A stretch of 64,000 nt of DNA, taken from the NCBI GenBank assembly GCA_964291675.2, contig OZ219866.1, positions 2,976,001 to 3,040,000 of the forward strand, read 5' to 3'. This DNA is from Alphaproteobacteria bacterium (GTDB lineage: Bacteria > Pseudomonadota > Alphaproteobacteria > MPNO01). The position numbers and the translations under genes are program-made. The notes beneath the pieces were generated by a model. It saw nothing but the letters and a program-made list of their open reading frames with translations, did not search any database and was not told the DNA's origin. Positions 20,518 through 47,030 of the stretch are shown here, in pieces (within the stretch, counting starts at the first letter, position 1; every line of letters starts with the position of its first letter).

Positions 20518-20733
20518 CCCCGTCATGGCCGGCCCCCGGATCGAGTCCGGGGGCGATCCGGCCATCCATGCCGCCTCGCGGCCCGCGAGGCGGTGGGTCG
20601 GGAGGGGCGGCGGCGCCAGTGGGTGCCCGGATCAGCCCCCTTCGTCATGGCCGGACTTGATCCGGCCATCCACGCGGCCTCTCCGCCCGCACGACGGTCC
20701 GACGAGAGGGGCGGCGGCGCCAGTGGGTGCCCG
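20518..20733. repeat. REP family 1 cluster (last unit interrupted by IS)
   Basis: CGTCATGGCCGG..GATCCGGCCATCCA units; final GTGGGTGCCCG continues at 22095. Confidence 0.85.
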
Positions 20734-20812
20734 ATGGAGTGGACGCCCCCTCCGACGGCATCTGTGTGCCAAAGTGGCGGTGTCATCAACCCACTTGGAG
20801 GAGGGAGCATCC

Positions 20813-22659: not shown

Positions 22660-22870
22660 GCCGTGGCAGGATGGGAATGGTGGAGGCGGCGACGCGTGAG
22701 CGTTCCGTTTATCGGTGATGTGGTTCCCGAGATATAAACTGCTTCCGGCGGTCGGCTCCGCACCCCGTACTGTGCCCGGCCCGCGGCCGTGGACGCGCGG
22801 CAAATCGAACCGCACCCGCTCGACGGGTGCGTGTCCTTCCGACCGCTGTCCCCGCCTCCACCGTGGCGAT
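22660..22870 (+). ncRNA. Putative bridge RNA of the second IS110
   Basis: 5' non-coding end containing ATATAAAC (target-left), CGGCAAA (donor-left) and GACGG (donor-right, reverse complement); bracketed by GGTGGAGGCGG/CCGCCTCCACC stem. Confidence 0.6.
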
Positions 22871-22923
22871 GCCACGGCGCGATCCTACGCCGCCGTGGCG
22901 AGAGCGCAACGAGGAGGACAGCG

Positions 22924-24174
22924 ATGAAGACGGAAGGCTTGCACGTCGTGCGGCCGCGCGCGGCGGGTCTGGACGTGCACAAGATGGAGATCACCGCGAC
23001 GGTTCGCCTGTGCGAGGGCGAGGGCGAGCCGGTGGTGGAGACGCGCTGCTTCAGCTCGCTTCCGAGCGGTCTGGCGGAGATGGTCGCCTGGCTGACCGGT
23101 CGCCGCGTCGAGGCCGCTGTCATGGAAGGGACCGGGATCTACTGGCAGGCGCCCTTCGCGGCGGTGGAGGCGGCGGGGATCGAAGCGATCCTGGTGCACG
23201 CGCGTCAGGTCAAGCAGTTGAAGGGGCGCAAGACCGATGTCGCCGACAGCGTGTGGCTGGCCTGCGTGTGCCAGTTCGGGCTCTGCACGCCTTCCCATGT
23301 TCCCCCCGAGCCGTTCCGGGAGCTGCGCTCGCTGAGCCGCCAGCGGCGTACCCTGGTCAGGCAGCGCTCGACCGTGCGCAACCGGGTGCAGAAGATCGTC
23401 GACCGCGCCGGCCTGCGCATCGGCGGCATCCTCTCCGACGTCTTCGGCGTCAACGGCCGCAAGATCCTCGACGGGCTGGCGCAAGCCACGCCGCGCGCGG
23501 TCATCCTCGCCTCGCTCACCGGCCACGTCGCCAACAAGCTGGAGGGGCTCGGCGAGGCGCTCTCCCTGAGCCTGGGCGACAACGACCGCTTCATGCTCGG
23601 CGATCTGCTGGACGAGCATGACGCGCTCGAGGCGCGCATCGCGTCCTACGGCGAGAAGATCGACCGGCAGATGACGCCGTGGCAGGAACAGCTCCGCCTG
23701 CTGACCACCATCCCCGGCATCGACCGCATCGCCGCCTCGACCATCCTGATCGAGATCGGCCCGGATATCGAGGCGTTCGCCTCCAAGCAGCACTTCGCCG
23801 CCTGGGCCGGGCTCTGCCCCGGCAACAACGAAAGCGGCGGAAAGCGCCGCAACGCGCGCACCCGAAGGGGCTCCAAGACGCTGCGCGCCAGCCTCGTCGA
23901 ATGTGCCCACGGCGCGGCCCGAACCAAGGGGTGCCAGTTCGAGGCCCACCACCGCGCGCTCGCCGCCCGGCGCGGATACAAGCGCGCCATCGTGGCCGGC
24001 GCACACAAGATGCTGCGCATCGTTTATGTCGTGCTCAAGACCGGCAGGCCCTACTACGACCGCACCGCCGACTACGACGCGCTGATGGTCAAGCGCAACG
24101 CCCCGCGCTGGATCCGAATGCTCCGCCGCTACGGCTACATCCAACCCCGGCGCGCCGAACCCAAGGCCACCTGA
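22924..24174 (+). CDS. IS110 recombinase (DEDD)
   Basis: GLDVHK, VMEGTGIYW, KTDVADS, TIPGI, AGLCPGNNESGGK. Confidence 0.95.
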   Translation: MKTEGLHVVRPRAAGLDVHKMEITATVRLCEGEGEPVVETRCFSSLPSGLAEMVAWLTGRRVEAAVMEGTGIYWQAPFAAVEAAGIEAILVHARQVKQLKGRKTDVADSVWLACVCQFGLCTPSHVPPEPFRELRSLSRQRRTLVRQRSTVRNRVQKIVDRAGLRIGGILSDVFGVNGRKILDGLAQATPRAVILASLTGHVANKLEGLGEALSLSLGDNDRFMLGDLLDEHDALEARIASYGEKIDRQMTPWQEQLRLLTTIPGIDRIAASTILIEIGPDIEAFASKQHFAAWAGLCPGNNESGGKRRNARTRRGSKTLRASLVECAHGAARTKGCQFEAHHRALAARRGYKRAIVAGAHKMLRIVYVVLKTGRPYYDRTADYDALMVKRNAPRWIRMLRRYGYIQPRRAEPKAT

Positions 24175-31940: not shown

Positions 31941-32417
31941 CTACCCCGCCCGCGGGTGGGCGACGATGGCCGGGCGGGCGGCGGCGGCGCTGCCGGCGGC
32001 GGCGGTGATGGCGATGCCGGCGACCCGGCTCTGGCCGGTCTTCGCGTCGTCGAGCTTGCCGGCCTCGGCGGTGGTGTAGAGCGCCGAGTCCCTGGCGCAG
32101 CGCGCGAGCACGTTGACCTTGAGCGCGGCGCCCTGGCCGGCGGTCGCGACCCAGCCGTACTCGCCCTCGGCGAAGGCGGCCTGGGCGACGGCGATGGCGT
32201 GGCCGGCATCGACCGCCGTCTTGGTGCCGGCGGAGGCGTCGAAATCCTCGTCGACGGTGACGTAGTCGTGGCGCGCGATCGCGCCGGCGGCCCGGACATA
32301 GATCCATTCGGTGCCGTCGGTGCCGGCGACCCGGGTGCCGGGGGCGTGCTCGGCGGCGGCGCCGGGCGAATCGATGCGCGCGCCGGCGAGCGGCGCGGTG
32401 GCGTGGTGGATGGACAT
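31941..32417 (-). CDS. Capsid decoration/cement-like protein
   Basis: PGTRVAGTDGTEWIYVRA, YGWV, LYTTAEAGKLDD; directly after the major capsid gene. Confidence 0.6.
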   Translation of the reverse strand: MSIHHATAPLAGARIDSPGAAAEHAPGTRVAGTDGTEWIYVRAAGAIARHDYVTVDEDFDASAGTKTAVDAGHAIAVAQAAFAEGEYGWVATAGQGAALKVNVLARCARDSALYTTAEAGKLDDAKTGQSRVAGIAITAAAGSAAAARPAIVAHPRAG

Positions 32418-36242: not shown

Positions 36243-36435
36243 TCCCTCGATACGGCCCTTCGGGCCTACTCGGGATGAGGGCGGGGTTGGGGCGGCCGGC
36301 ATCCTTTCTCATCCATTCTCTCCTCATCCTTCGGGGGCTACTCAGGATGAGGGTGGGGTTGGGGCGGCCGGCATCCTTTCTCATCCATTCTCTCCTCATC
36401 CTGAGTAGCCCGCCGCAGGCGGGCGTATCGAAGGA
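36243..36435. repeat. REP family 2 pair with internal 72-bp-period tandem duplication
   Basis: 36266-36330 is repeated at 36338-36402. Confidence 0.85.
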
Positions 36436-36647
36436 CCGACCGCGTCGTTGCCGATCTCGACCATGCCGTTGGCCCGCAGATGCTCGTCCCAGTCGCGGCG
36501 CGAGCGGTAGCGGCGGCCGTCGGCGGGGCTGGCGATGCCGTGCTCGAAGGGGGCGTCGCGGTTGACGAGCTGCGGCCCGGCGGCCGGGCGGGGCGGCGCC
36601 AGCGGGACCCAGCGGGCCTGCGCCTTGCTCCAGGCGTAGCGGGTCAT
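36396..36647 (-). CDS. Small conserved phage protein after portal
   Basis: SPADGRRYRSRRDWDEHLRANGMVEIGND; stop codon supplied by the REP. Confidence 0.7.
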   Translation of the reverse strand: MTRYAWSKAQARWVPLAPPRPAAGPQLVNRDAPFEHGIASPADGRRYRSRRDWDEHLRANGMVEIGNDAVGPSIRPPAAGYSG

Positions 36648-38425
36648 CGCGGCCTGCCCTCGGCCGGGCCCGGCGGCGGCGCGGCGGCGGCCGCCTCGGC
36701 CTGGCGGATCAGCGCGTCCGAGGTGCGCCCGATCACCTCCTCCAGCCGGCGGCCGGGCTTGAAGCTGCGCGCGGCGGTGCGGAACATTTCGAGGAACATC
36801 GGCGCAGATTGCGGCGCCGCCCCGATCAAGGGCGCGATGCCGGTAAAGAAGCCGGTCGCGGCGGTCAGGAACTCGACCGCGTTGCGCCGCTCGGCCTCGG
36901 CGTCGGGCTGGACCGTCGATTCGGTCTCGATGTCGATGCGGAAGCCGCGCAGCCGCTCGTCGCGCAGCAGCGCAGCGACCGCCGGCGGCACCGGCCGCCC
37001 GGTCATCCGGGCCAGCGTCTCGGGGCGGAAATGCTCGGCGATCACCTCCGCCTTGAGGCGCAGCGCGTCGCGCACGAAGCGCTGCATCGGGCGCTGGCGG
37101 GGCTGCATCCGCATGGTGCCGAAGGAGCCCTTGAGGCGCTGCGCGGTGGCGGTCTCGGAGGCCTGGGTGGAGCCGCGCACGATGTCCGACAGGCCGGTGA
37201 TCTCGAAGATCTCGGCCTTGAGCTGCGCCATGTGGCCGTTGAGCGAGACGATCACCTGGGCGATGCGCTCGATCGGCAGCCACTCGATGGCCGCCGCCAG
37301 CCCGCCCTTGTCGCGGAACTGGTCCCAGTCCTTGACCGGGATCATCTCGTTCTCGCCGGCCTCGGTGAGCAGCCGCTCGATCTCGCCCAGCACCCCGGCA
37401 TAGACGCCGCGCGCCCTGAGCGCGGCGATCAGATGCCGCTTGCGGTCGGCGAGCTCGTCGAGCTCCAGCGCCTGGTCCTGGTAGAGGGTGAATTCCGGGA
37501 TCGGCACCCGCGAGTCCGACGTCCTGACCGCATAGATCGGCTCCGGCACCGGGAAGAAGCCGGCGAGCCCGAGCGGGTCGGGGGTCTCCTCGACGACGCG
37601 GTCGAAGCCGTCGGCGATGACGATGCGCCTGCGCCCCGGCTTGTCCCAGATCTCCCACAGGACGGCGCGCCTCGCGCCTTCCGGCGCGACCTCCGGCGCG
37701 GCGCCCGCGCGGTCGCGCCCGTCATAGGCGCGCACCGCGCCCTCCAGCGGGATGTCGCGGCCGATCGCGCCGAAGCGCTCGACCAGCTCGCCGCGCGCGA
37801 GCGCGTGGCGGAAGGCGATCCAGCCCACCTCGTCCCAGCAGCGCGCGGGCTGCTCGCGGTAGTCCTTCCAGAACACGTGGCGGCAGCGGACCCGCTCGTC
37901 GGCCACCTCCTCGACCCAGGCGTCCTCGCCGTCGAACCCGTCGGGCTCGACCGGCCGGCCGTCGAGCAGGAAGACCGGCGCGCCATCGGGGCCTTCGGCG
38001 CGCTCCAGGGCGCGCCTCGCGATCACCGGCTCGTAGACGATGCGCGCGACGCCGCGCCCGGGCAGCAGCATGTCGTCGCGCACCGCCTCCATCGCCCGGT
38101 CGAAGCCGTCGTCGTCGAGCAGGTAGGAGAGCGCGCGCTCCAGCACCAGCGCGGCCTCGCGCCCGACCGGGTCGTCGTCGAGATAGCGCCGGCGCACGTC
38201 CGGCGCCGGGGTCTGCGAGTAGATCACCGGCTTCAGGATCTCGGTATTGGCCCACAGGATGTTGACCTGGCGGCGGGCGGACTGGCGCTTCTCGGCGCGG
38301 TAGCGCTCGACCACCTTGTCGGCGCGCTGCATCCAGTCGCGCCCGGCCCGCCCCGCCCGGTCGAGCTCGGCCCGCCAGTGGCGCACCGTCCCGTCCGGCC
38401 CGGGAGTTTCGGTCTCGGTCTTCAT
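36644..38425 (-). CDS. Portal protein
   Basis: NILWANTE.LKP..Y..TP.PDVRRR, LLPGRG, LWEIWDK, GFFPVPEP, IFEITGLSDIVRG, ETATAQ, FRIDIETEST. Confidence 0.88.
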   Translation of the reverse strand: MKTETETPGPDGTVRHWRAELDRAGRAGRDWMQRADKVVERYRAEKRQSARRQVNILWANTEILKPVIYSQTPAPDVRRRYLDDDPVGREAALVLERALSYLLDDDGFDRAMEAVRDDMLLPGRGVARIVYEPVIARRALERAEGPDGAPVFLLDGRPVEPDGFDGEDAWVEEVADERVRCRHVFWKDYREQPARCWDEVGWIAFRHALARGELVERFGAIGRDIPLEGAVRAYDGRDRAGAAPEVAPEGARRAVLWEIWDKPGRRRIVIADGFDRVVEETPDPLGLAGFFPVPEPIYAVRTSDSRVPIPEFTLYQDQALELDELADRKRHLIAALRARGVYAGVLGEIERLLTEAGENEMIPVKDWDQFRDKGGLAAAIEWLPIERIAQVIVSLNGHMAQLKAEIFEITGLSDIVRGSTQASETATAQRLKGSFGTMRMQPRQRPMQRFVRDALRLKAEVIAEHFRPETLARMTGRPVPPAVAALLRDERLRGFRIDIETESTVQPDAEAERRNAVEFLTAATGFFTGIAPLIGAAPQSAPMFLEMFRTAARSFKPGRRLEEVIGRTSDALIRQAEAAAAAPPPGPAEGRPR

Positions 38426-38479
38426 GGCTTTCCTTTCGGCTCGCATGGCGGTCCTTCGATACGTGCCCTGCCGCCCCCA

Positions 38480-38590
38480 CCCGTCATGCCCGGACTTGAT
38501 CCGGGCACCCACTGGCGCCGCCGCCTCTCCCTGCAACCCCCTTGCGCGCGGCGGCCGCATGGGTGCCCGGATCAAGTCCGGGCATGACGG
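38480..38590. repeat. REP family 1 pair
   Basis: CGTCATGCCCGGACTTGATCCGGGCACCCA ... TGGGTGCCCGGATCAAGTCCGGGCATGACG. Confidence 0.88.
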
Positions 38591-38616
38591 AGGGAGCGGG
38601 GCGGCGCGCCCCGCGG

Positions 38617-39933
38617 TCAGATCAGCCCGTGCCCGGCGCGGCGGCGCTCGGCGAGGTGGCGGCGCCATTGGCCCTCGAAGCTGTCCGCGCGCGGCGCCGG
38701 CGGGGCGAAGCGGTCGCCGATCCCCATCGCCAGGTAGCGGAACGCGTCCGCGCCGTGGCTGAAGCGGTCGTGCACCGGCCGGTCGCCGAGCCCGCCGGTG
38801 GCGGGGTCGATTTCCGCCCGGTAGCGGCGCAGGCACTCGATGCCGGCCTCGGCGCGCTCGGCGTCGAACCAGCAGCGCGGCAGGATCGCGCGCACCGCGT
38901 TGATGCCGTCCTCGATGCGGTGGCGCGGCACGATGGCGAACCGGATGCCGAGCCGCCGCGCCTGCTCCTCGCGCGTCCGCCCGGTGCCGAGCTCGCGGGC
39001 CAGCGCGTCGGGCGGCGCGTAGTGGCGGCCATAGACATAGCCGCGCTCGGCGGCGCGTTCCTGCAGCAGCCCGGCATAGTGGTCGAGCCCCTCCCCCTCC
39101 GCCTCGTAGTAGTCGAGCAGGTGGATCTCGGGCCCGGCGAGCTGGGCGAACCAGATCGCCGTCGGGTCGCCGATGCCGAGATCCCAGGCGGTGTCGACCG
39201 GCAGCGCCGGGTCGTGCGGCACCGCGCGGATACGCCCCGAGCGCCGGGCGTCGGCCATCGCCCGGCCGTAATAGGCGCCCTTGACCGCCGCCTCGAAGGA
39301 GCACTCGAACTCCTGGGCGTACTCCTCGCGCGTCATGTCGCGGCGCGCGGCGGCGAGCTCCTGCGCCGGCAGCACGCCACTCGCCGATGCCGGGAACAGC
39401 GCCGCGTACCAGGTCGCATCGGCGCGGGCCGCGCGGTACATGCGCCAGAACGCGTCATGCCCCTTGGGCGTGCCGATGAAGATCGCCCAGCCCTCGCGGT
39501 CGGCGAGCGCCGGGCGGATCACCTCGCCCCACATGTCGGGGTTCATCTGCGCGTACTCGTCGAGCACCGCGCCGTCGAGATAGATGCCGCGCAGCGAATC
39601 CGGGTTGTCGGCGCCGTAGAGCTGGATGCGCGCGCCGTTGGGGAGGTCGACCCGGAGCTCGGTCTCGCTCACCTTGCGGCCCGGCACCGCGGACGTGTAG
39701 TGCTTGAGATAGTCCCACGCGACCCGCTTGGCCTGGCGGTAATAGGGCGCGATATAGGCAAACCGCGGGCGCGGGCGCCGCGCGCGGATGGCGTGGTCGA
39801 TCAGCTCGTTGACGCAGAGCACCGTCTTGCCGAAGCGGCGGTGGCAGACCAGCACGCTGAACCGGGCGAGGCTGCGGTGGATGTCGGCCTGCAGCGGGCG
39901 CGACCGGTAGCCGGTGCTAATTTTCTCGGTCAC
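38617..39933 (-). CDS. terL: Terminase large subunit
   Basis: CHRRFGKT (Walker A), LRGIYLDGAVLDEYA (Walker B), IGTPKG, AWDLGIGD, SHGADAFRY. Confidence 0.95.
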   Translation of the reverse strand: MTEKISTGYRSRPLQADIHRSLARFSVLVCHRRFGKTVLCVNELIDHAIRARRPRPRFAYIAPYYRQAKRVAWDYLKHYTSAVPGRKVSETELRVDLPNGARIQLYGADNPDSLRGIYLDGAVLDEYAQMNPDMWGEVIRPALADREGWAIFIGTPKGHDAFWRMYRAARADATWYAALFPASASGVLPAQELAAARRDMTREEYAQEFECSFEAAVKGAYYGRAMADARRSGRIRAVPHDPALPVDTAWDLGIGDPTAIWFAQLAGPEIHLLDYYEAEGEGLDHYAGLLQERAAERGYVYGRHYAPPDALARELGTGRTREEQARRLGIRFAIVPRHRIEDGINAVRAILPRCWFDAERAEAGIECLRRYRAEIDPATGGLGDRPVHDRFSHGADAFRYLAMGIGDRFAPPAPRADSFEGQWRRHLAERRRAGHGLI

Positions 39934-40246
39934 GTTCGATCCCCGTATCGACGATCTCGGCCAGCCGGTCGGCGGCGATGCCCCCGTCCCCGCCCTGGCC
40001 CAGGATCAGCCGGCCCAGCAGGCCGGCCATGGTGGCGTTGCGCTCGGCGAGCGCGAATTGCGAGCGCCGGATGCGCACCCGCCCGCACAGCGCGCCGTCG
40101 GCCCAGGCGCGCCGAAGCGCCGGGTCGGCGAGCGCGCGGGCGAACGCATCCGCCGGCACGCCGAGCCAGGCGGCCGCCTCGGCCTCGGTGCAGCCGATCG
40201 CCGCCAGCTCGGCGAGCGCGTCGGCGTCGATGCTCGAACCCGTCAA
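39917..40246 (-). CDS. Terminase small subunit-like protein
   Basis: HTH-like LAAIGCTEAEAAAWLGV, RIRRSQFALA..NATM..LLGRLILGQ; TTG start after GAGGA; overlaps terL. Confidence 0.7.
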   Translation of the reverse strand: MTGSSIDADALAELAAIGCTEAEAAAWLGVPADAFARALADPALRRAWADGALCGRVRIRRSQFALAERNATMAGLLGRLILGQGGDGGIAADRLAEIVDTGIERDREN

Positions 40247-40280
40247 GATCGCGTCCTCGTTCGGTTGTCGGGATGTCGGG

Positions 40281-40425
40281 CCACGAAAAAGGGCGCCGGT
40301 CTCTCCGGCGCCCCATTTCGCGACTGTGGCAAATCTACCCCAAAACGCGTCCCATGTCAAGCGAAAAATACGTTATAGGGAAATTTTTTCGGAACCCCTT
40401 GGAATCCCGGGGGTTTCTTGCCGGT
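40281..40425 (-). promoter_or_regulatory. Promoter + intrinsic terminator unit R1
   Basis: -35 TTGACA (40360-40355), 17 bp, -10 TAGATT (40337-40332), then GGGCGCCGG-AGAGA-CCGGCGCCC-TTTTT. Confidence 0.88.
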
Positions 40426-40469
40426 GCCAATTCGGGCGGCGGAGCGGGCGGTTGTCCCTCGATACGCCC

Positions 40470-40756
40470 CGTCATGCCCGGACTCGTTGCACCGCTGCCC
40501 GGTTCAGCCTTCGATGCGGGCCGAACCCGGCCCTCTTCGCCCCGCCCCTCGACGCCCGGATCGAGTCCGGACATGACGGGAGGCGGAGTGATGGCGATGG
40601 GGCGGGCCGCGCCCGGCTCTCCCTGCTCCTCCTCCGCCACCACCCCGTCATGGCCGGACTCGATCCGGCCATCCACACGGCCTCTCCGCCCGCATGACGG
40701 TCCGACGGGAGGGTGGCAGCGCTCATGGATGCCCGGATCGAGTCCGGGCATGACGG
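40470..40756. repeat. REP family 1 cluster between R1 and R2
   Basis: Two CGTC-type pairs. Confidence 0.82.
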
Positions 40757-40784
40757 GGGAGGAGGCCGGTTGCCCCCCGTCTCC

Positions 40785-40928
40785 GCCACGAAAAAGGGCG
40801 CCGGTCTCTCCGGCGCCCCATTTCGCGACTGTGGCAAATCTACCCCAAAACGCGTCCCGTGTCAAGAAAAAATACGTTAAAGGGAAAATTTTTGCCAAAC
40901 CCCCTGGAATCCCGGGGGTTTCTTGCCG
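40785..40928 (-). promoter_or_regulatory. Promoter + terminator unit R2
   Basis: TTGACA 40865-40860, 17 bp, TAGATT 40842-40837, same hairpin and T tract. Confidence 0.88.
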
Positions 40929-41012
40929 CCTCCGAAGCGCCACCGGACCGACGCCGGAGCAGCGAACGGCGATTACCCGGGAGGCGTCCGGAAGCGGTGG
41001 CGGAACCGTGAT

Positions 41013-41663
41013 CTACGAAAACAGGCGTTCTAGTTCTTCGAGCACCTGCAAGTGTCGTTTCGTCGTCAATGGCGCTGAACAGAAATAGCGTTCAGCCTCC
41101 ACGGACGTCCCCTCGCGACGTTCAATGATGAATTTCGGGATTGCCTCGGATTTTGATGCGAATTCAATTGTGAGCGCGCTGAACGCTGCTGCACTCACGT
41201 CCCGGTGTTCGTTCACGCCGGATAAAATGACATTTGCAATCTTGTCGTACTTGGCGAGCATATTCGCTGCCGGTTTCTCGAATTCGACAACGACCTCGCT
41301 CGAGTAGAGCGACTTCTTATGGATCCGCCTGCATCCGTAATGCTGGACCAGCCAGTCTATCAGGTCCGCGAAAAATGCTTCCGCATGCCCTGTCTCGTAT
41401 GCTCGAACGACTACTCCGTCATTGTGGATAGACAAGCGGTGGATCGTGGCTTCTCCCAACTCTGTCTGGAAGAACCCCAACTCGTACACAAGCCCGTTTC
41501 TTTCCAGTTCGGTGTGGGACGACAGCCTGGGCAAGGTGCCGAAATTGTATCGTTGGCCGATGGCAATGAGAATTTGGCGTTCATTTAGCCCGTCCATGGG
41601 GGTGAACGACTCAAGAGGGAAAAGCGATACCAAGGTTCCGGACGAGAAAGCTATGATTTTCAC
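41013..41663 (-). CDS. Hypothetical protein (cargo, lower GC)
   Basis: 216-aa globular-looking ORF, GTGA overlap with the upstream HTH gene. Confidence 0.7.
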   Translation of the reverse strand: MKIIAFSSGTLVSLFPLESFTPMDGLNERQILIAIGQRYNFGTLPRLSSHTELERNGLVYELGFFQTELGEATIHRLSIHNDGVVVRAYETGHAEAFFADLIDWLVQHYGCRRIHKKSLYSSEVVVEFEKPAANMLAKYDKIANVILSGVNEHRDVSAAAFSALTIEFASKSEAIPKFIIERREGTSVEAERYFCSAPLTTKRHLQVLEELERLFS

Positions 41664-42166
41664 GGAGCTGACCTTGCGATACTCGGCAACCTTGCCGCAT
41701 CGGCCTGCGACGGTTTAGGCGGTATTTCCGCCAACGCACTGTTGGGCCGAATCCGCCGATCCCTCACTCCTTCTTCGTGCTTCACCGCTCTTGAGCGCTG
41801 CGCGGGGGCGAGGGATCGGACCAGATCCTCAGATCGGTAATTCCTCGCGGCGCGCTGCAAGTACGGCTCGGATCGAGGCCGCAACTCCTCGCGACAGATA
41901 CCGACCAGCAGCTCGCTGACGGTATCCAGCGTCCAGTTGCCCGGCGATCCGAGCAGCCTGGTGACGCGAGCCGGCTCGAGCCCGAGGCGCCGCGCGAGCT
42001 TTGCCTTGGTCAACCCGTCCCGTTCGGCCGCCTCGTGGAACCGCCGCAGAACGTAGTCGTAGAAGCTGTTCCTCACCCGCTCGTTGAGATAGCCGAGCGC
42101 GTAGTCCGAGAGCGGCTCGTCGCCCGCGATCTCAGATTTCACTGGAATTTGTCGAAACGTAGTCAC
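41660..42166 (-). CDS. XRE-family HTH protein (antitoxin-like)
   Basis: GLTKAKLARRLGLEPARVTRLLGSPGNWTLDTVSELL. Confidence 0.8.
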   Translation of the reverse strand: MTTFRQIPVKSEIAGDEPLSDYALGYLNERVRNSFYDYVLRRFHEAAERDGLTKAKLARRLGLEPARVTRLLGSPGNWTLDTVSELLVGICREELRPRSEPYLQRAARNYRSEDLVRSLAPAQRSRAVKHEEGVRDRRIRPNSALAEIPPKPSQADAARLPSIARSAP

Positions 42167-42674
42167 GGCAGCTTCCTCCTGTCAGCGGCACCGCGCCGGG
42201 AAGGGCGGCATTCCAGCGCTCGTTCGTCTCGATGAGGGCCAGCTCGTACTCCAGCGAATCCCGCTTGCCGAGCGGCCTCCGGCCGCCGAACCGAACCGAC
42301 CTGGGCTCCCACGAGAGGGCAACGAACGTGTCGGCGCAGGGAAACCTTCCAAACACGCGCAAGCCGGGGTTCGGGTCGCGGCTCCTGATTTCCCAGGTTC
42401 CGTCCGCGGGCGGATCCATGAGCGCCAGGAATGCGCTTCCGTGCTCGAACGGCGTCATGCTCAGCGTCACGTGCTCGCCTTTGACAAACGATTCCAGGTC
42501 TCCCTGAAGCCGGCCGACCCGCCGCCCCCAAGCCTCGACCCGCTCGGAAATGTCATCGGCGAGCCGAGGATGGAGAAGCACGGAACGGACCGCCTCGTCA
42601 CTGTCGAACTCCGGCACGAATGCGCGAAGGCGACCCGTTACGATCGCAGCCTCGATACTCTCTGCTATTGACAT
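42132..42674 (-). CDS. RelE/Gp49-like toxin candidate
   Basis: GTWEIRS..PGLRVFGRF..DTFVAL; upstream of HTH gene. Confidence 0.6.
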   Translation of the reverse strand: MSIAESIEAAIVTGRLRAFVPEFDSDEAVRSVLLHPRLADDISERVEAWGRRVGRLQGDLESFVKGEHVTLSMTPFEHGSAFLALMDPPADGTWEIRSRDPNPGLRVFGRFPCADTFVALSWEPRSVRFGGRRPLGKRDSLEYELALIETNERWNAALPGAVPLTGGSCRDYVSTNSSEI

Positions 42675-42784
42675 TTAAGTCAACTGGATCGCGCTTGGCC
42701 TGGACCGCCGAACAAGGTAGCACGATGGATGAGCGGACGCCGAAGCCCGCCTCGTCCGCCCGGGCCCCCCCGTTCCCCCGCCAG

Positions 42785-42928
42785 CAAAAAGGGCGCCGGT
42801 CCCTCCGGCGCCCCATTTGTCGACTGTGACAAACCTACCCCAAAACGCGTCCCATGTCAAGCGAAAAATGCGTTAAAGGGAAATTTTTTGCGTAACCCCC
42901 TGGAATTCCGGGGGTTTCTTGCCGGTGC
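42785..42928 (-). promoter_or_regulatory. Promoter + terminator unit R3
   Basis: TTGACA 42860-42855, 17 bp, TAGGTT 42837-42832, hairpin GGGCGCCGG-AGGGA-CCGGCGCCC-TTTTT. Confidence 0.86.
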
Positions 42929-43058
42929 CGACTCGGGCTGCGGGGCGGGCGACTGTCCCTCGATACGCCCCCATCGGCATTTCGACCAAGCGGAGCGAGC
43001 CCCGGCACTGACAAATCCGGCGACAGGGCAGGAAGATATCCACAGATCGAACGGCAAG

Positions 43059-43304
43059 CTAGCCAAACAGCTTGATGAGCGTGATTGCGAGCCCGATCCC
43101 GATAACGGAGGCGGCAACGACGCCGCCGAGCACCCATGCCTTGGTCGCCATGGTGTTTTCGATACCCCTGATCCGTTCGTCAATCCGGGCTAGCTGGATT
43201 TCCAATGCCCGCAAGCGAGCGTCGATGCCATCTCCGTTCGACCCGCCGGCATGCACCAAGGATGCCGATGGAGTCGCCGTGGGATGTGGACGGACCGACG
43301 CCAT
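43059..43304 (-). CDS. Small coiled-coil + C-terminal TM protein (cargo)
   Basis: IDARLRALE..LARIDERIRGIE..MATKAW then TM; TGATG coupling. Confidence 0.7.
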   Translation of the reverse strand: MASVRPHPTATPSASLVHAGGSNGDGIDARLRALEIQLARIDERIRGIENTMATKAWVLGGVVAASVIGIGLAITLIKLFG

Positions 43305-43570
43305 CACGCCCTGACCTTGGAGAGCCATTCCCAAAGGTCGTTTCGATTGAATCCGAAATAGGCAGAGATCTCGAGAACGATACCGAGACGACTGTCGGCG
43401 TCCGTGGCAACCCCGACGGTCCTGGCCACGTCCGATGTCAGGACGATCCCTTCGGGTGCGACGAATGCCACCCTCTCGTCCAGAATGAAGTGCCTGCCGG
43501 GCCAGTTCTGCTTTATCGCTTCCCATGCGCCGGCGTCCGGCTGATTGAGATAGACGGCGAAGGTACTCAT
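43304..43570 (-). CDS. Small hypothetical protein (cargo)
   Basis: 88 aa MSTFAVYL..YFGFNRNDLWEWL; alpha/beta pattern. Confidence 0.7.
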   Translation of the reverse strand: MSTFAVYLNQPDAGAWEAIKQNWPGRHFILDERVAFVAPEGIVLTSDVARTVGVATDADSRLGIVLEISAYFGFNRNDLWEWLSKVRA

Positions 43571-43710
43571 CCGGCGACCCTTTCCCGTCGGCGCGTAAAC
43601 CCTAGATAGGGGCCGTTTCGCGGTCAACAACCCTGGCTGGCACCGGAGGTCGAAGCCGCCTCGATGTGTACGGTGCGCGGTGCGCGCCTTCGTCTCCGCT
43701 CCCCGCCCGG

Positions 43711-43851
43711 CAAAAAGGGCGCCGGTCTCTCCGGCGCCCCATTTGTCGACTGTGACAAATCTACCCCAAAACGCGTCCCATGTCAAGCAAAAAATGCGTT
43801 AAAGGGAAATTTTTTGCGGAACCCCCTGGAATCCCGGGCGTTTCTTGCCGG
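43711..43851 (-). promoter_or_regulatory. Promoter + terminator unit R4
   Basis: TTGACA 43786-43781, 17 bp, TAGATT 43763-43758, same hairpin. Confidence 0.88.
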
Positions 43852-43924
43852 CTGCGATTGGGGACGTTCCGTCGCTATCCAGGGTGAGGGCTCTATCGAG
43901 CGGCGGCCCGATCGAGGAGGGGGC

Positions 43925-44395
43925 CTACGCGCTCGTCCGGACTTGGGGGCGAGGCGGGTCCGGGAGGGCGATGGATACCGACCCCGTCATCCCGTTGTAG
44001 AGCATCGTCACATGGCGCAGGAGCGCGCGGCCGATGAGTGCGCCGTGCGGCTGCCCGCCCGCATGGAGGTGCACGCCCGCGAACCTGCCGGAGACGGCCA
44101 GGTCCAGGATGGGGATGAATATCTGGGCCAGATGGACATTGACCTCTCCGGCCCCGTGCACCCCGGATACTTGCACACGATCGATGGCCGGCAAGCCGAC
44201 CGCCGCCGCGATGGAAGAGTCTATGCAGCTTTCCCCTGCCCCCGTATCGACCAGAGCACGGTGCTCGGCCTGCGGCAGGTTCGGGTTCCCGCCGGCACGG
44301 TAGTCGGGATCGAAGCCGATCCGCACCCGGAGCGTGGGGCCGAACCTGACCAGGGCATAGGGTTGCCCTGCGAACCCGCACTCAGCTTGCGGCAT
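43925..44395 (-). CDS. Retropepsin-like (clan AA) aspartyl protease (cargo)
   Basis: ALVDTGA catalytic motif, ALIGRALL. Confidence 0.85.
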   Translation of the reverse strand: MPQAECGFAGQPYALVRFGPTLRVRIGFDPDYRAGGNPNLPQAEHRALVDTGAGESCIDSSIAAAVGLPAIDRVQVSGVHGAGEVNVHLAQIFIPILDLAVSGRFAGVHLHAGGQPHGALIGRALLRHVTMLYNGMTGSVSIALPDPPRPQVRTSA

Positions 44396-44651
44396 CCACC
44401 GCAACCGGGTTGTAGAGCGCCGAGGCGGGTAGCGTGATCGGCGGAGCGCCGATCTCCCTGATCAAGTACGGCCCTGCCCCGAACCGCTCGACCGCCTGCG
44501 CGGCGGCGTCCTCGAACGTGTCGTAGAGGCCCGCCAGCTCCCCGCCATGCACGATCGCCCACTTGCCCAGGTGATCCGTCTCGAGCGCGTTGCGCATGCC
44601 TTCATAGGCAGCGATCTCCCTGGTCAGCGCAGGTGCCTCCGCATCCGCCAT
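44382..44651 (-). CDS. DUF5678-like small protein (cargo, partner of the protease)
   Basis: EIAAYE..L..DHLGKWAIVHGGELAGLYDTFEDA..A..RFG.GPYLIREIG. Confidence 0.72.
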   Translation of the reverse strand: MADAEAPALTREIAAYEGMRNALETDHLGKWAIVHGGELAGLYDTFEDAAAQAVERFGAGPYLIREIGAPPITLPASALYNPVAVDAAS

Positions 44652-44763
44652 ACGAGCCCTCCTTCCGGGACTGCGGGGAAGACCGCAACCCCTTGGCACG
44701 GGAAAACAATAGGATATCGCGGGGCACAAGCATATCCCGCCGTGAAGCCGACCGGGCACCCGC

Positions 44764-44850
44764 CCACGAAAAAAGGCGCCGGTCCCTCCGGCGCCCCATT
44801 TCTCGACTATGAAAAATATAGTCGAAAACGCGTCCCGTGTCAAGCAAAAA
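44764..44850 (-). promoter_or_regulatory. Promoter + terminator unit R5 (short, abuts regulator stop codon)
   Basis: TTGACA 44843-44838, 17 bp, TATATT 44820-44815, hairpin GGCGCCGG-AGGGA-CCGGCGCC-TTTTTT. Confidence 0.86.
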
Positions 44851-45438
44851 TTATCCGAAGTCGTCGTTCTCCTGCTCCTCCTCGTCCGTCCGCTCTGCCG
44901 GGTCCATGCGCACGGCCGAGGAATTGCGGGTCTCGGGGTACGGCGCGTCGACCCAGCCGGCAAGCTCGGCGTAGCGGTGCAGCGCGGCCCGGACGTGCTC
45001 GACCGCCGAGCCGTGGCGCATGCGGTACCAGCCCTCGACCTGGCGCAGCCCGTGATTGTCGATCACCACGTCGAGGATGAGCTGGAGCCGCGTGGTGCGC
45101 ACCGCGCCGGCGGCGACGGTGACCGCCATCTCGCGCGCCCAGGGCCGGTAGCGCAGCCGCCAGGCCAGCTCCTCCGCCGGGGTGAGCCGGTCGATGGGGT
45201 CGGTGAACATGGCGCGGCGCCGGCGCTGGGCGATGGGCGCGGCCGGGCGCGCGGCGGGGAACAACCCGCGGCCGAACGCCTCCCAGACCCGGCGGATCTC
45301 GAGCGCCGCGCGGAGCTGGCCGGCGCAGAGCCGGCCGTCGCGCCCCAGCCGGGCGACGATGTCGCGGCGCAGCTTGCGCAGCGTCTCGGGGGTCGGCCCG
45401 GCATCCCGGGGTGCGGCGGCTTCGGTTTCGGGTTCCAT
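44851..45438 (-). CDS. DUF6456-like protein, candidate Q/GafZ-type antiterminator
   Basis: IVARLGRDGRL..GQLRAA; C-terminal sigma4-like LILDVVIDNHGLRQVE..R.G.A..VRAALHRYA; lies right before a promoter-terminator. Confidence 0.6.
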   Translation of the reverse strand: MEPETEAAAPRDAGPTPETLRKLRRDIVARLGRDGRLCAGQLRAALEIRRVWEAFGRGLFPAARPAAPIAQRRRRAMFTDPIDRLTPAEELAWRLRYRPWAREMAVTVAAGAVRTTRLQLILDVVIDNHGLRQVEGWYRMRHGSAVEHVRAALHRYAELAGWVDAPYPETRNSSAVRMDPAERTDEEEQENDDFG

Positions 45439-45460: not shown

Positions 45461-45907
45461 TCAGCCGGCGCGGCGGCGGGCCGGCGGGCGGACGCTCGGC
45501 CCGGCCGCGAAGGCGCCCGGCAGCGGGTCGATCCCGGGATAGCGGATGCGGGTGCCGGCCGCCCGGGCGGCGCGGATCAGGTCGGGGATCGACGCCGGCG
45601 CGCCGTCGAGCGCGTAGCCGGCGACGGTCGCGGTGACCCTCCCGCCGAGCGTCTCCAGCGCCCGGCGCAGCGGCGGCGAGGGCAGCGGCGGCGCCTCGCC
45701 CTCGCCGTCGTCCTCCGGCCAGGCCATATCCGGCGCCGGCGCCGGCGGGGCGGCGCAGCGCCATTCGTCCAGCGCCGCTTCGAGCGCCGCGGCGGGGCGC
45801 GCGAAGGTCCATTCGAGGAAGCCGAGCTCGATGCCGCTCGCCGCCAGCAGGAGGAGACGCCGGCGCTCCCCCGGGGAGAACGGAAGGCGCTTGCGATCTT
45901 CTTCCAT
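45461..45907 (-). CDS. Hypothetical protein, possible DNA-binding co-regulator
   Basis: AGGAG RBS; N-terminal FSPGERRRLLLLAASG helix pattern; first gene of the divergent operon. Confidence 0.55.
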   Translation of the reverse strand: MEEDRKRLPFSPGERRRLLLLAASGIELGFLEWTFARPAAALEAALDEWRCAAPPAPAPDMAWPEDDGEGEAPPLPSPPLRRALETLGGRVTATVAGYALDGAPASIPDLIRAARAAGTRIRYPGIDPLPGAFAAGPSVRPPARRRAG

Positions 45908-46008
45908 ATGCGCTATCTCCTTCTCATATCTGACGCCTGTAGTTTGCATGAAAAGAAAACTCTGTCAAGTAGCAATACGCCGAAGGATGCAATTTCTGGG
46001 TGAGGACC
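45908..46008. promoter_or_regulatory. Divergent promoter/operator region
   Basis: AT-rich; minus-strand TTGACA (45968-45963); inverted TTGCAT (45944-45949) / ATGCAA (45987-45992). Confidence 0.55.
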
Positions 46009-46641
46009 ATGGCCGAAAGACCTGACGGAATCGCGATCTCCAACCGTATCCGGCAATGGCGCAAGCGGCGCGGGCTGACGCTCCAGGTGCTGGCCGGGCG
46101 GCTCGGCACCTCGGCCGGCCATCTGCACAAATGGGAGACCGGCAAGGTGTCGATCACGCTCGACCGGCTGGGCGAGGTGGCCACCGCGCTGGAGTGCAAC
46201 GTGCTCGACCTGGTCGAGGGGCTGGCCAACGTGCCGGTGGTCGGCCGGGTCGGCGCGGGCTCCGAGGTGCATGCCGTCGACGACCACGCGATGGGCCAGG
46301 GAACCCGCCAAGTGCGCTGCCCCAACGGGCTCGACGCCCAGCAGACGGTGGCGGTCGAGGTGGTCGGCGATTCGATGCTGCCGATCGAGGAGGGCTGGCT
46401 GCTGTTCTACACCCGCGACTACCAGGGGGTGCCGACGGAATGCCTCGGCAAGCTGTGCGTGGTGCAGCTCGCCGAGGACGGGCCGCGCTACGTCAAGCGG
46501 CTCAAGCCGGGGCGGCAGAACGGGCTGTTCAACCTGTACAGCACCAACGCCCGCGAGATGGAGGACATGGCGCTCGCCTGGGCCGCGCCGGTGCTGGACG
46601 CGCGCCCGCCCGTGCCCGGCGAGAGCGGCGCCCGGGGCTGA
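46009..46641 (+). CDS. CI/LexA-like repressor (XRE HTH + S24 peptidase)
   Basis: NRIRQWRKRRGLTL..LA..LGTS..WETG; VGRVGAG cleavage site, GDSM Ser, YVKR Lys. Confidence 0.92.
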   Translation: MAERPDGIAISNRIRQWRKRRGLTLQVLAGRLGTSAGHLHKWETGKVSITLDRLGEVATALECNVLDLVEGLANVPVVGRVGAGSEVHAVDDHAMGQGTRQVRCPNGLDAQQTVAVEVVGDSMLPIEEGWLLFYTRDYQGVPTECLGKLCVVQLAEDGPRYVKRLKPGRQNGLFNLYSTNAREMEDMALAWAAPVLDARPPVPGESGARG

Positions 46642-46747: not shown

Positions 46748-47030
46748 CCGTCATGCCCGGACTTGATCCGGGCACCAACAGGTGCCGCCGGCACAACGCC
46801 CCGTCGGTTGAGGCGGCGGCACCAGTGGGTGGCCGGATCGAGTCCGGCCATGGGTGCCCGGATCACCCCCGGACTTGATCCGGGGGCCGGGCATGGCGAT
46901 GGGGGAGCCGGGGCGGTGGAACAAGACGACGCGGCGGGCGCGCCGCGATCCCTGCCCCGATCCAGACCGGACAGCAGTCGAACCGGCCCGGCCATGACGT
47001 GGCGGGGCAGGGCGCGTATCGAGAGACGCC
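46748..47030. repeat. REP family 1 cluster
   Basis: Nested CGTC-type units with an ACCGGACAGCAGT module. Confidence 0.82.

Follow-up and report, generated by a model that had tools for sequence, protein, structure and literature searches.

Related late-promoter and repeat systems

Antitermination of the Q type is processive, and in Stx phages stx occupies a moron hot spot just behind the late terminator. As outlined in the available text of a preprint on BaGTA (bioRxiv 10.1101/2024.11.20.624540) and of Tran & Le 2024 (PMC11150451), the circuit is composed of an upstream regulator, a spacer element, a NANNNT sequence, and a terminator. In the Caulobacter GTA, according to the latter account, a two-gene regulator, GafYZ, is encoded beside a repressor; GafZ binds an element between −35 and −10 and bypasses a terminator consisting of three 150-bp direct repeats (PMC11150451). 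BaGTA employs BrrG, described as a Q21-like processive antiterminator whose gene lies at one locus while the promoter, NANNNT element, and terminator on which it acts lie at a different one (bioRxiv 10.1101/2024.11.20.624540). A different kind of repeat is the PeSL of T4-type phages, in which a repeated sigma-70 promoter and stem-loop, AT-rich in its upstream part, lies on either side of variable ORFan genes that are shuffled as modules by homologous recombination (PMC2839356; PMC4122927, as far as these texts are accessible).

The locus described here lies in the window, the whole 64-kb stretch of DNA analysed, where five promoter–terminator units (R1–R5) follow a putative regulator gene, reg195, and precede the terminase genes (Table 1). 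Like the lambda Q switch, it places the regulator gene immediately 5′ of a promoter that looks strong and constitutive, with a conserved element in the −35/−10 spacer, a NANNNT hexamer just past the −10, and late packaging genes next; the short terminated leader RNA predicted for the units resembles lambda 6S RNA, and what lies just behind the terminator is a moron hot spot, as in Stx phages. In contrast to lambda Q, reg195 matches no Q family model, the leader is only ~40 nt long, and the operon contains five copies of the module, with about 15 more elsewhere, a multiplication not described for Q systems in the literature searched. With GafYZ, the locus shares a two-gene regulator near a repressor, a spacer element, a remote DUF6456 match (reg195), and a prophage-derived, vertically inherited cluster. 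However, in the accessible account of Caulobacter, GafZ acts on one target only, the repeats serve solely as terminators, and the GafZ-binding element (ZBE) is palindromic whereas the element here is asymmetric (PMC11150451); moreover, reg195 misses the Pfam cut-off for DUF6456, and orf162 bears no seen likeness to GafY, the search having given no usable lead. As in BaGTA, regulator and late operon lie apart in two congeneric genomes (G003 and G011), where the structural operon is still headed by a unit directly before terS; unlike here, BaGTA as described has a long leader (864 bp from promoter to first bgtA-K gene) and one target operon. The units, like PeSLs, come with shuffled cassettes, whose order and content here differ between species. 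PeSLs, however, act as early promoters in lytic phages and mostly have the stem-loop within or upstream of the promoter, and the accessible portions of the reports mention neither a dedicated regulator nor a spacer element. The locus also resembles an integron array in its row of cassettes that share one orientation, can be exchanged, and are separated by a repeated element; in contrast to integrons, there is no integrase, the repeat is not an attC-type site, and every cassette carries a promoter and terminator of its own in place of a single Pc.

Table 1. Positions of the units and neighbouring features in the window
Feature	Position	Strand	Details
Late operon start	36644-40246	−	terS 39917-40246; terL 38617-39933; portal 36644-38404
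R1, long unit	40283-40437	−	directly 5′ of terS; −35 40360-40355; −10 40337-40332; hairpin 40314-40290; T5
R2–R1 interval	40438-40787	−	four REP arms, no gene
R2, long unit	40788-40942	−	−35 40865-40860; −10 TAGATT 40842-40837; hairpin 40819-40795; T5
Cassette 3	41013-42674	−	c180 42132-42674; HTH protein 41660-42166; c216 41013-41663; GC 57–64%
R3, long unit	42783-42937	−	−35 42860-42855; −10 TAGGTT 42837-42832; hairpin 42814-42790; T5
Cassette 2	43059-43570	−	88-aa protein 43304-43570; 81-aa protein with C-terminal hydrophobic helix 43059-43304
R4, long unit	43709-43863	−	−35 43786-43781; −10 TAGATT 43763-43758; hairpin ~43740-43716; T5; upstream part with A-run, hairpin, A/T-rich segment
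Cassette 1	43925-44651	−	c89 44382-44651; clan-AA aspartyl protease 43925-44404
R5, short unit	44766-44850	−	−35 TTGACA 44843-44838; spacer with GGGACGCG; −10 TATATT 44820-44815; −10-like CATAGT; hairpin 44797-44773; T6
reg195, putative late regulator (Q/GafZ-like)	44851-45438	−	single copy, genus-conserved; large family outside Pfam coverage
orf162	45461-45907	−	148 aa from likely start 45907; conserved partner gene 5′ of reg195
CI/LexA-type repressor	46000-46641	+	HTH_3 + Peptidase_S24; divergent from orf162–reg195

Anatomy and conservation of the unit

The sequence TTGACAYGGGACGCGTTTT occurs five times in the window against 0.00 expected (100 shuffles), and alignment resolves five in-register direct repeats on the minus strand (40270-40437, 40775-40942, 42770-42937, 43696-43863, and 44753-44920). 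Each harbors a near-consensus sigma-70 promoter (−35 6/6, −10 4–5/6, 17-nt spacer) with A-tracts upstream, an invariant GGGACGCG just 3′ of the −35, a conserved −10-like CAnAGT (the NANNNT hexamer, 3 nt past the −10), then a short leader and, behind it, a strong intrinsic terminator. Together with the regulator gene directly upstream, the element between −35 and −10, the hexamer, and the terminator constitute the four parts of a Q circuit. A consensus promoter scan of the window returned six sites (0.9 ± 1.0 expected), four of them R1, R2, R4, and R5; R3 was not called because its TAGGTT fails the rule of the scan. Hairpins followed by a T-run were found in R1, R2, R3, and R5, R4 falling just short with TTTTTGCC. 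In each of the five units, the leader forms a 9–10-bp GC stem (ΔG −23.8 to −27.5 kcal/mol, z about −4, 0/200 shuffles as good). Pairwise identity amounts to 84–96% over the 83-nt core and, for R1–R4, 85–93% over ~155 nt; the long units bear an additional terminator-like hairpin on the opposite strand. An earlier note on this DNA had recognised the five-copy minus-strand repeat and the constant motif in the −35/−10 spacer, both confirmed here, and had assigned a promoter and a terminator to each copy, which holds at the level of sequence. Its dimensions require correction: the long units measure ~155 rather than ~140 nt, the −10 is separated from the stem by 17 instead of ~18 nt, and R5, ~85 nt in size as proposed, has its −35 beginning 8 nt past the regulator stop codon.

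Expressed as mean majority frequency across 48 units from 12 genomes, conservation peaks in the GGGACGCG spacer (0.97), the best-conserved part of the unit. Values of 0.88 and 0.89 were obtained for the −35 and −10, 0.92–0.96 for the stems, and 0.85 for the leader, with 0.72 between −10 and hexamer, 0.66 in the loop, and 0.69 in the flanks. The terminator stems show 96.9% pairing, with no compensatory changes within the genus. Orthologues of R1 precede terS in eight species and hardly vary, whereas neither the flanks nor even the terS N-terminus can be aligned.

The regulator locus and its distant relatives

A single copy of reg195 (195 aa) is present in this genome, and the gene is found in 10 of 11 congeners; CI, orf162, and reg195 occupy the same chromosomal flank in all seven genus loci examined. 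The protein matches no Pfam, PHROG, NCBIfam, or PADLOC model, and no homologue was detected in 50,697 phage records. Its earlier designation as DUF6456-like is backed by a remote profile–profile match of the family (probability 70%, E 3.9e-5, 110 columns) and by a language-model lead to DUF6456 clusters, but not by Pfam detection: the DUF6456 HMM does not match reg195 even at E 10, and one of 45 distant family members has a match, below threshold.

Relatives down to 28% identity are positioned before phage structural genes. In six of ten distant loci, a TTGAC-NN-GGGA-type promoter and a hairpin follow the regulator: three of six genome loci (L096, L097, and L099; 47–55% identity) and three of four viral contigs (L128–L130; 28–42%). 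The motif takes the form TTGAC-NN(N)-GGGA(C/G), with L099 diverged to GAC and a T-rich spacer; a CAnAnT-type hexamer and a GC hairpin come next in all six loci, with a T-run in all except L096. No recognisable unit follows the regulator in L094, L095, L098, and L131. In all four viral contigs, the regulator is preceded by a replication or primosomal gene and followed by terminase genes, and in the two distant genome loci that were scanned for this, L096 and L099, non-homologous structural modules lie 3′ of it. The earlier view of reg195 as a Q/GafZ-type partner of the unit is thus plausible. Since the motif occurs only once or twice in distant genomes, and in two of the four searched, the module is ancestral and its amplification specific to this genus.

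Dispersed copies of the unit

Amplification of the unit took two forms: an array of one to five copies between regulator and terS and, in this genome, about 15 copies on the rest of the chromosome. The earlier note had described the array and missed that the repeat family is genome- and genus-wide: 15 additional copies are scattered over this genome, many of them at positions conserved across species, and 11 congeneric genomes contain from 3 to more than 20 units each. The unit is therefore not special to the array. Dispersed units head all six Madara/PDC-S11-like nuclease paralogues along with other genes. A co-oriented gene lies behind 38 of 60 units, nearly always within ~110 nt, which leaves no space for another promoter. 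The dispersed copies, often before defence-type genes, suggest that one phage-type regulator could co-activate many genes.

Proposed mechanism and alternatives

The repeats, their conservation pattern, the deep linkage of regulator and module, the variability of the array, and the dispersed copies along with the genes behind them are features of the sequence itself; promoter activity, termination, reg195 binding, and antitermination are predicted functions. With somewhat better than even probability, the unit represents an amplified, antitermination-gated late promoter of the lambda Q-pR′-tR′ or GafZ kind. Each repeat would be a copy of the late promoter–leader–terminator module of a prophage-derived cluster passed on vertically within this genus. 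Host sigma-70 RNA polymerase would initiate at the near-consensus promoter and halt ~40 nt on at the strong intrinsic terminator, so that genes behind a unit would be kept low. Upon loss of the CI/LexA-type repressor, the orf162–reg195 operon would be expressed. Next, reg195 would recognise the invariant GGGAC(G)CG that lies immediately 3′ of the −35 and join polymerase paused at CAnAGT, rendering it terminator-resistant. The terminase/head/tail operon and anything else behind a unit would then be transcribed. In the array, exchangeable moron cassettes would lie between units, and homologous recombination from unit to unit would be the simplest way of moving them. Reloading of the antiterminator at each copy, as suggested earlier, is speculative given the processivity of Q-type modification; under such a mechanism an operon has no obvious need for several loading sites, which counts against the proposal. 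So do the negative family and phage-record searches with reg195, the four distant loci lacking a recognisable unit, the zero count of compensatory stem changes, and those dispersed units that lead into metabolic genes or into no co-oriented gene.

It is unlikely, though worth weighing, that the units are autonomous PeSL-type regulatory cassettes, a strong constitutive promoter plus attenuator giving low, insulated expression and spread or shuffled by homologous recombination, with reg195 at most activating its own downstream promoter or unrelated to the other copies. Composite sigma-70 promoter and stem-loop repeats beside variable ORFs are described in the available account of Arbiol et al. 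2010, and units bracket variable low-GC cargo here. Dispersed units precede unrelated host genes, some of them ordinary metabolic ones (such as UbiD, Rieske, and CO-dehydrogenase FAD subunit), and one congener (G009) retains at least ten units, yet neither reg195 nor terL was found in this 270-contig MAG, whose flanking contig stops at the cluster border. However, unlike in most PeSL classes as reported, the terminator lies past the start site and thus stops the unit's own transcript. Furthermore, the spacer element, needless for a constitutive promoter, is conserved above the −35 and −10 and follows the regulator gene even in relatives of 28% identity.

An improbable alternative is that the spacer serves as an initiation-control site, either a repressor operator or a target of reg195 as a sigma-like activator, the hairpin being a fixed 5′ attenuator or mRNA-end stabiliser. 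The element does sit inside the promoter, and GafA, the DUF6456 prototype, has been read as a sigma-like factor binding near −10/−35 in the source available. Against this, the near-consensus promoter with its upstream A-tracts makes an activator seem unnecessary, the element is asymmetric, and the sole inverted repeat seen between CI and orf162 (TTGCAT...ATGCAA) is absent from the units; the terminator right after the start is retained in distant relatives. The chances are poorer still that the units are genes for a multi-copy ~40-nt small RNA acting in trans. They are self-contained promoter–RNA–terminator entities, no co-oriented gene follows 4 of the 15 dispersed copies, and the opposite-strand hairpin of long units would be expected for an insulated gene; but Rfam yields no match up to E 1, just ~11–15 nt at the 5′ end are single-stranded, the leader and the segment between −10 and hexamer are less conserved than the spacer, and most units lead straight into a co-oriented gene.

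Plasticity and cargo of the array

That collapsed or chimeric repeats created the array in assembly is hardly credible: in run X1 the short-read contigs are interrupted at each unit and cannot confirm cassette order, but three cargo pieces (2004, 902, and 1202 nt) show no differences to the window at a depth of 21.8–22.9, equal to the flanks, arrays of two to three units occupy the same place in six other genomes, and homologous cassettes stand at other positions in G001, G004, and G010. Across species, the interval between regulator and terS holds one to five units, and both cargo and cassette order vary, as does the arrangement on a metagenome contig; the array is therefore plastic, in agreement with the earlier note. 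The note was also right that no recombinase is adjacent. Its term integron-like is not supported, since there is neither a recombinase nor an attC-like site, each cassette has its own promoter, and two-gene cargo modules, among them that of cassette 1, occur elsewhere in congeners with no unit within ~1.2 kb. Homologous recombination of the PeSL type fits the array better.

As noted before, all cargo is co-oriented. The aspartyl protease was verified (Pfam Asp_protease_2, E 2.1e-5) and the HTH assignment received weak support (PHROG, 8.7e-7), whereas the DUF5678-like and RelE-like labels found no match even at E up to 10; profile searches gave no family for the cassette 2 proteins. One RNA library contains parts of the stretch as short contigs, from which starts, ends, and strand are not readable. 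The R2–R1 interval, correctly described as consisting of REPs only, has very high depth in read data, and a 30-nt REP probe has 215 matches in the genome.

Architecture and conservation of the repeated unit

Repeat finding and alignment both bear out the existence of five co-oriented copies (R1–R5) of a promoter–terminator unit on the minus strand, between terS and the gene for reg195, a 195-aa putative late regulator. The window contains a 19-nt core, TTGACAYGGGACGCGTTTT, in five places, whereas 100 shuffles contain none, and a consensus scan returned six promoter-like sites versus 0.9 expected. The same scan recovered the hairpin and T-run of four units, its rules being narrowly missed by the -10 of R3 (TAGGTT) and by the T-run of R4. 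About 155 nt are common to R1–R4 at 85–93% identity. R5 is, as had been described, a short unit abutting the stop codon of the regulator gene: it consists of the 85-nt core only, its -35 starting 8 nt past that stop. In all five units, the leader is predicted to form a 9–10 bp GC stem between an A-tract and a U-tract (T5-6), with a folding energy of -23.8 to -27.5 kcal/mol and a z-score of about -4. None of the Rfam covariance models matched the units at an E-value of 1 or below.

Conservation was scored for a set of 48 distinct units drawn from 12 genomes. The spacer element GGGACGCG is the most conserved segment (0.97) and lies above both hexamers (-10, 0.89; -35, 0.88), in agreement with its constancy noted in the five copies; the stems reach 0.92–0.96, and variation is tolerated in the loop of the hairpin (0.66) and in the flanks (0.69). 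GGGAC(G)CG, invariant between -35 and -10, is a candidate regulator-binding element. Three nucleotides past the -10 lies a hexamer of the NANNNT type, CAnAGT, recognized by its sequence only, in which the A is invariant and the T at least 90% conserved over the same 48 units; CA.A.T is likewise at least 90% conserved in a deep alignment of 10. Pairing within the terminator stem is kept in 96.9% of cells with zero compensatory changes inside the genus, so that the stem is neither backed nor contradicted by covariation. The unit preceding terS is near-invariant in eight species, in which neither its flanks nor, indeed, the beginning of terS can be aligned. Concerted evolution of the units within genomes was considered and rejected: identity is 0.788 within and 0.766 between genomes, so the units appear old and constrained rather than recently homogenized. 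Also discarded was the idea that a hairpin upstream of the long-form units acts as a general reverse terminator, since this hairpin is stable in four units of the G000 array and a handful of further units (z -2.3 to -5.0), whereas the long forms from other species mostly do not form a stable one (mean z -1.35 in 24 of them). Contigs of a metatranscriptome (X2) cover three stretches of the array (see table); start, end, and strand are not readable from them, and DNA carry-over is possible.

Coordinates of the features discussed (window positions unless a contig is named)
Feature	Position	Strand	Remark
Head-tail-lysis cluster (minus strand) plus repressor	24800-46641		
reg195	44851-45438	-	putative late regulator
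CI/LexA-type repressor gene	46000-46641	+	divergent
c89-type small protein + clan-AA aspartyl protease	43925-44651		two-gene module
Metatranscriptome contigs (X2)	41587-41813, 42741-42864, 44400-44751		
REP palindromes	40438-40787, 36320-36425, 38400-38600, 46750-46850		core CCCGTCATGCCCGGACTCGATCCGGGCATC
tRNA-Gly(GCC) call	31960-32046	+	ARAGORN, 87 nt; probably false
Transposase genes	20525-21844, 22789-24174	+	phrog_2199
Madara-like paralogues	C2:1932609, 671607, 2352471, 2585649, 3355030; C1:543581		L005, L015, L011, L014, L006, L010

The regulator family and its cis-module

The regulator is encoded by a single-copy gene in this genome (G000) and is found in 10 of the 11 congeneric genomes (G001–G011). 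It has no match in Pfam (E up to 10), including the antiterminator Q family models, nor in PHROGs, NCBIfam, or PADLOC, and no homologue among 50,697 phage records. It belongs to a large family, for which one search returned 78 clusters and an exhaustive one, with E-values up to 0.001, 1100 cluster representatives; if the reading of the unit set out below holds, these constitute, together with their cis-module, a large phage late regulator family outside the family libraries scanned. Homologues of GafA are annotated as DUF6456 (PMC9638019). DUF6456 covers the C-terminal part of GafA, and GafZ. The corresponding Pfam model (PF20057) detects the control genome, Caulobacter, and leaves reg195 unmatched even with E-values up to 10; one of 45 family members gives a sub-threshold match. 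A language-model (Atlas) search of reg195 led to DUF6456, and hhalign of the reg195 family against ten DUF6456 domains yields a probability of 70.4% (E 3.9e-5, 110 columns). A remote relationship to DUF6456, short of membership at the curated threshold, is suggested by these profiles. A sequence search of the PDB with the family profile returned chance-level matches only (best E 0.14). The partner gene upstream, orf162, was tried as a GafY analogue and set aside, as it has no family match and no Atlas lead above 0.84; the predicted complex of its product with reg195 (scores 0.04, 0.73, 0.01) carries no weight either way.

A stronger case than that from protein similarity comes from the genomic context at distant loci. 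Ten such loci were compared, six from genomes and four from viral contigs, and a similar module lies behind the regulator gene in six of them: L096 and L097 (55% identity to reg195), L099 (47%), and the viral contigs L128–L130 (28–42%). In this module, TTGAC is separated by 2–3 nt from GGGA(C/G), behind which come a -10, a hexamer of the CAnAnT type, and a GC hairpin; the spacer of L099 is diverged and GAC-T-rich, and five of the six modules, all but that of L096, have a T-run after the hairpin. No such unit follows the regulator at L094, L095, L098, and L131. The structural genes behind the module are non-homologous to those of G000 in L096 and L099, the two distant genome loci scanned for this. 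In all four viral contigs, the order is a replication or primosomal gene, the regulator, and the terminase. Genome-wide, the motif occurs once in one of four distant genomes and twice in another, and is absent from the remaining two; the second copy (L101) shares this anatomy. From the single and double copies in distant genomes, the module is ancestral to the regulator family, and it is the amplification that is specific to the genus. Both the large regulator family and its conserved cis-module are newly recognized.

In L128–L130 and L101, both arms of the hairpin (GCGCC..CGG / CCG..GGCGC) and the nucleotides behind the T-run (C[G/A]TG[G/C]) resemble those of G000, a likeness that extends even to one viral contig of 48% GC. 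This hints that the hairpin may be recognized by its sequence itself, beyond its shape.

A putative antitermination-gated late promoter

Circuits of the Q type are described as having four components: a regulator, a promoter with a binding site, a -10-like NANNNT element, and a terminator (bioRxiv 10.1101/2024.11.20.624540). In G000, the gene for reg195 lies directly upstream of the late promoter, and in the viral contigs the regulator sits at the boundary between replication and packaging genes; a NANNNT hexamer is found just past the -10, and a predicted terminator separates promoter and late genes. Because all four components can be recognized by sequence, the unit is read as an antitermination-gated late promoter, an assignment that we consider, on balance, probable. 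Promoter strength, termination, reg195 binding, and antitermination are parts of a scheme that we infer as follows. The polymerase would start constitutively at the near-consensus promoter and the transcript would terminate after about 40 nt; once the CI-type repressor is lost, the paused complex would take up reg195 at GGGAC(G)CG, and the polymerase would be carried past the hairpin by it. In function, the unit would work like lambda pR′–tR′ with Q and like PgtaT with GafZ. In Caulobacter, GafZ is described as binding an element between -35 and -10, the polymerase then bypassing a terminator built of three 150-bp direct repeats (PMC11150451). Since Q-type modification is processive, several loading sites in one operon are hard to account for; each copy may provide independent, insulated late expression of its own cassette, with some leak in the lysogen. 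If true, the proposed scheme would link the control of gene transfer agents of the GafZ type to ordinary temperate phages, and the unit would represent a compact, portable expression part that is off until antiterminated.

The host cluster

The order of transcription is the divergent CI gene, orf162, reg195, the array, terS, terL, portal, holin, and major head protein, followed by tail and lysis genes; no integrase or replication gene is found among the cluster proteins scanned. This gene order is repeated in congeners at 70–90% protein identity. The CI repressor is 85–95% identical and better conserved than the structural proteins, terL is found in nine of the 11 congeners, and the DNA beyond the repressor gene is one common host locus in all seven genus loci examined. 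The cluster looks vertically inherited and prophage-derived, and, as far as its genes tell, may be a gene transfer agent or a domesticated prophage. In some species, it is decaying or rearranged. G010 has lost the stretch from terS to the head gene at the cluster locus, terL not being found genome-wide. In G003 and G011, the late operon lies apart from the regulators, the unit still standing directly before terS. G009, a MAG of 270 contigs in which the flanking contig ends at the cluster border, carries at least ten units, and neither reg195 nor terL was found in it.

Several minor features accompany the cluster. A family of REP palindromes with about 215 matches in the genome explains sub-threshold, miRNA-like Rfam matches and a very high read depth in the bins concerned. 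The tRNA called by ARAGORN lies within a coding region, antisense to structural genes. Two transposase genes of one family lie by the distal cluster end.

Cargo and plasticity of the array

All cargo is co-oriented, as had been stated, and has a GC content of 57–67% versus about 72–75% alongside. Of the names proposed for it, the aspartyl protease and, weakly, the HTH protein were confirmed, and the remaining ones were not; the interval between R2 and R1 does hold REPs only, four REP arms being found there. The comparison with relatives suggested in the earlier note revealed differences in both number and identity of the cargo, with one to five units between reg195 and terS and changes in order and content.

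Units between reg195 and terS in genomes of the genus
Genome	Units	Remark
G000	5	three cargo cassettes + one REP-only interval
G001	2	c180-HTH-c216 cassette
G002	2	
G004	3	IS elements fill one interval; c89-protease cassette last instead of first
G005	2	
G006	3	
G008	3	318 and 529 nt apart; no recognised cargo
G010	1	
G011	1	then MNT-HEPN pair

In a contig of a close relative (sequencing run X3), the upstream part of R1 is fused to the protease cassette. The cargo modules also occur independently of the units: the c89-protease pair is present elsewhere in G008, and a homologous c180-HTH pair elsewhere in G005, in both cases without a unit within about 1.2 kb. The contigs of short-read run X1 break at each unit, so that the order of the cassettes cannot be confirmed from this run; its cargo pieces match the window exactly, at a depth equal to that of the flanks. 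Three IS copies are inserted inside the array of G004. The small protein and the clan-AA aspartyl protease recur as a two-gene module at differing loci in five congeners (L137–L141; 30–77% identity), which suggests a mobile pair.

Integron cassettes are promoterless and end in attC sites, one Pc serving them all. Here, every interval has a promoter and a terminator of its own at its head, nothing attC-like is apparent, and, as had been noted, there is no adjacent recombinase among the proteins scanned in or beside the array, from portal to the CI gene. The integron-like character ascribed to the array is therefore abandoned, and the putative antitermination-gated promoter and the plastic array are retained from the same interpretation. 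By analogy, the simplest mechanism of cassette shuffling would be homologous recombination between the 155-nt units, as proposed for the PeSL (promoter plus stem-loop) cassettes of T4-type phages (PMC2839356; PMC4122927). The likeness lies in a repeated composite of sigma-70 promoter and stem-loop beside variable genes that are shuffled between relatives. The array evolves like PeSL cassettes and is not an integron; if true, it would constitute a natural case, outside T4-type phages, of cassettes shuffled between promoter–terminator units.

Dispersed units in the genus

The five copies are real and yet the repeat is not private to the array: a profile built from them detects 20 copies in the 4.8-Mb genome, of which 15 are outside the array and distributed over both contigs. 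Two of the dispersed copies are without a terminator and one is without a -35. A 90-nt unit query finds the unit in every one of the 11 congeneric genomes, the number of matches listed ranging from 3 to at least 23; outside the genus, it gives a single weak match each in two of 29 genomes of other genera (L048, L049), with no reg195 homologue within 1.5 kb. Several dispersed copies occupy sites that are orthologous between species (e.g., L043, L056, L064, L055, L060, L052), and at least one site is filled in two species and empty in G000. At one occupied/empty pair (C1:822.1k versus L054/L057), neither target-site duplications nor terminal inverted repeats were found. The open-access literature searched yielded no description of such a unit system or of amplified Q-type loading sites. 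New are the multiplication of the module, with one to five copies in the operon and between 3 and over 20 in each genome of the genus, and the conservation of units at orthologous host sites. If the antitermination reading is true, a Q-type loading site is kept across the genus in about 20 copies per genome, turning a late switch into a chromosome-wide regulon.

Over all genomes, 38 of 60 units are followed, nearly always within about 110 nt, by a co-oriented ORF of high GC3. The largest downstream group (12 units) encodes a protein of about 250 aa, usually with a C-terminal HTH_3, whose N-terminal half matches PADLOC PDC-S11 in five of five cases tested (E 1e-31 to 1e-60). PDC-S11 is reported to protect against T-even phages and has been named Madara (bioRxiv 10.64898/2026.09.05.749240). 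G000 has six PDC-S11-like paralogues featuring a NucS-like PD-(D/E)xK nuclease domain and mostly a C-terminal HTH_3. A unit lies 37–89 nt upstream of all six, one of them being frameshifted; this association with every Madara-like paralogue is likewise new. An Amidase_2 gene behind a unit is conserved in two species. Further genes behind units encode PIN and HTH proteins and the metabolic proteins UbiD, SelA, and aldehyde dehydrogenase, and four of the 15 dispersed units of G000 face a convergent gene or nothing. This mixture fits a spreading promoter module that was sometimes co-opted.

A bolder proposal, which we regard as unlikely, is that host defence and toxin-type genes behind the units form a tripwire: expression would remain off as long as the cell holds no Q/GafZ-like antiterminator of this widespread phage family, and its arrival, from the resident element or an infecting relative, would fire them all together. 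The set would include the six Madara-like nuclease-HTH paralogues, the amidase, and, in congeners, the MNT-HEPN and PIN genes. On this proposal, the task of running a host regulon would explain why the regulator trio is kept even where its structural genes lie elsewhere (G003, G011) or are partly lost (G010).

A scan of JGI metagenomes with a 25-nt motif returned only two loci; in one of these the unit lies ahead of terS-terL-portal, and in the other ahead of a PDC-S11-like gene.
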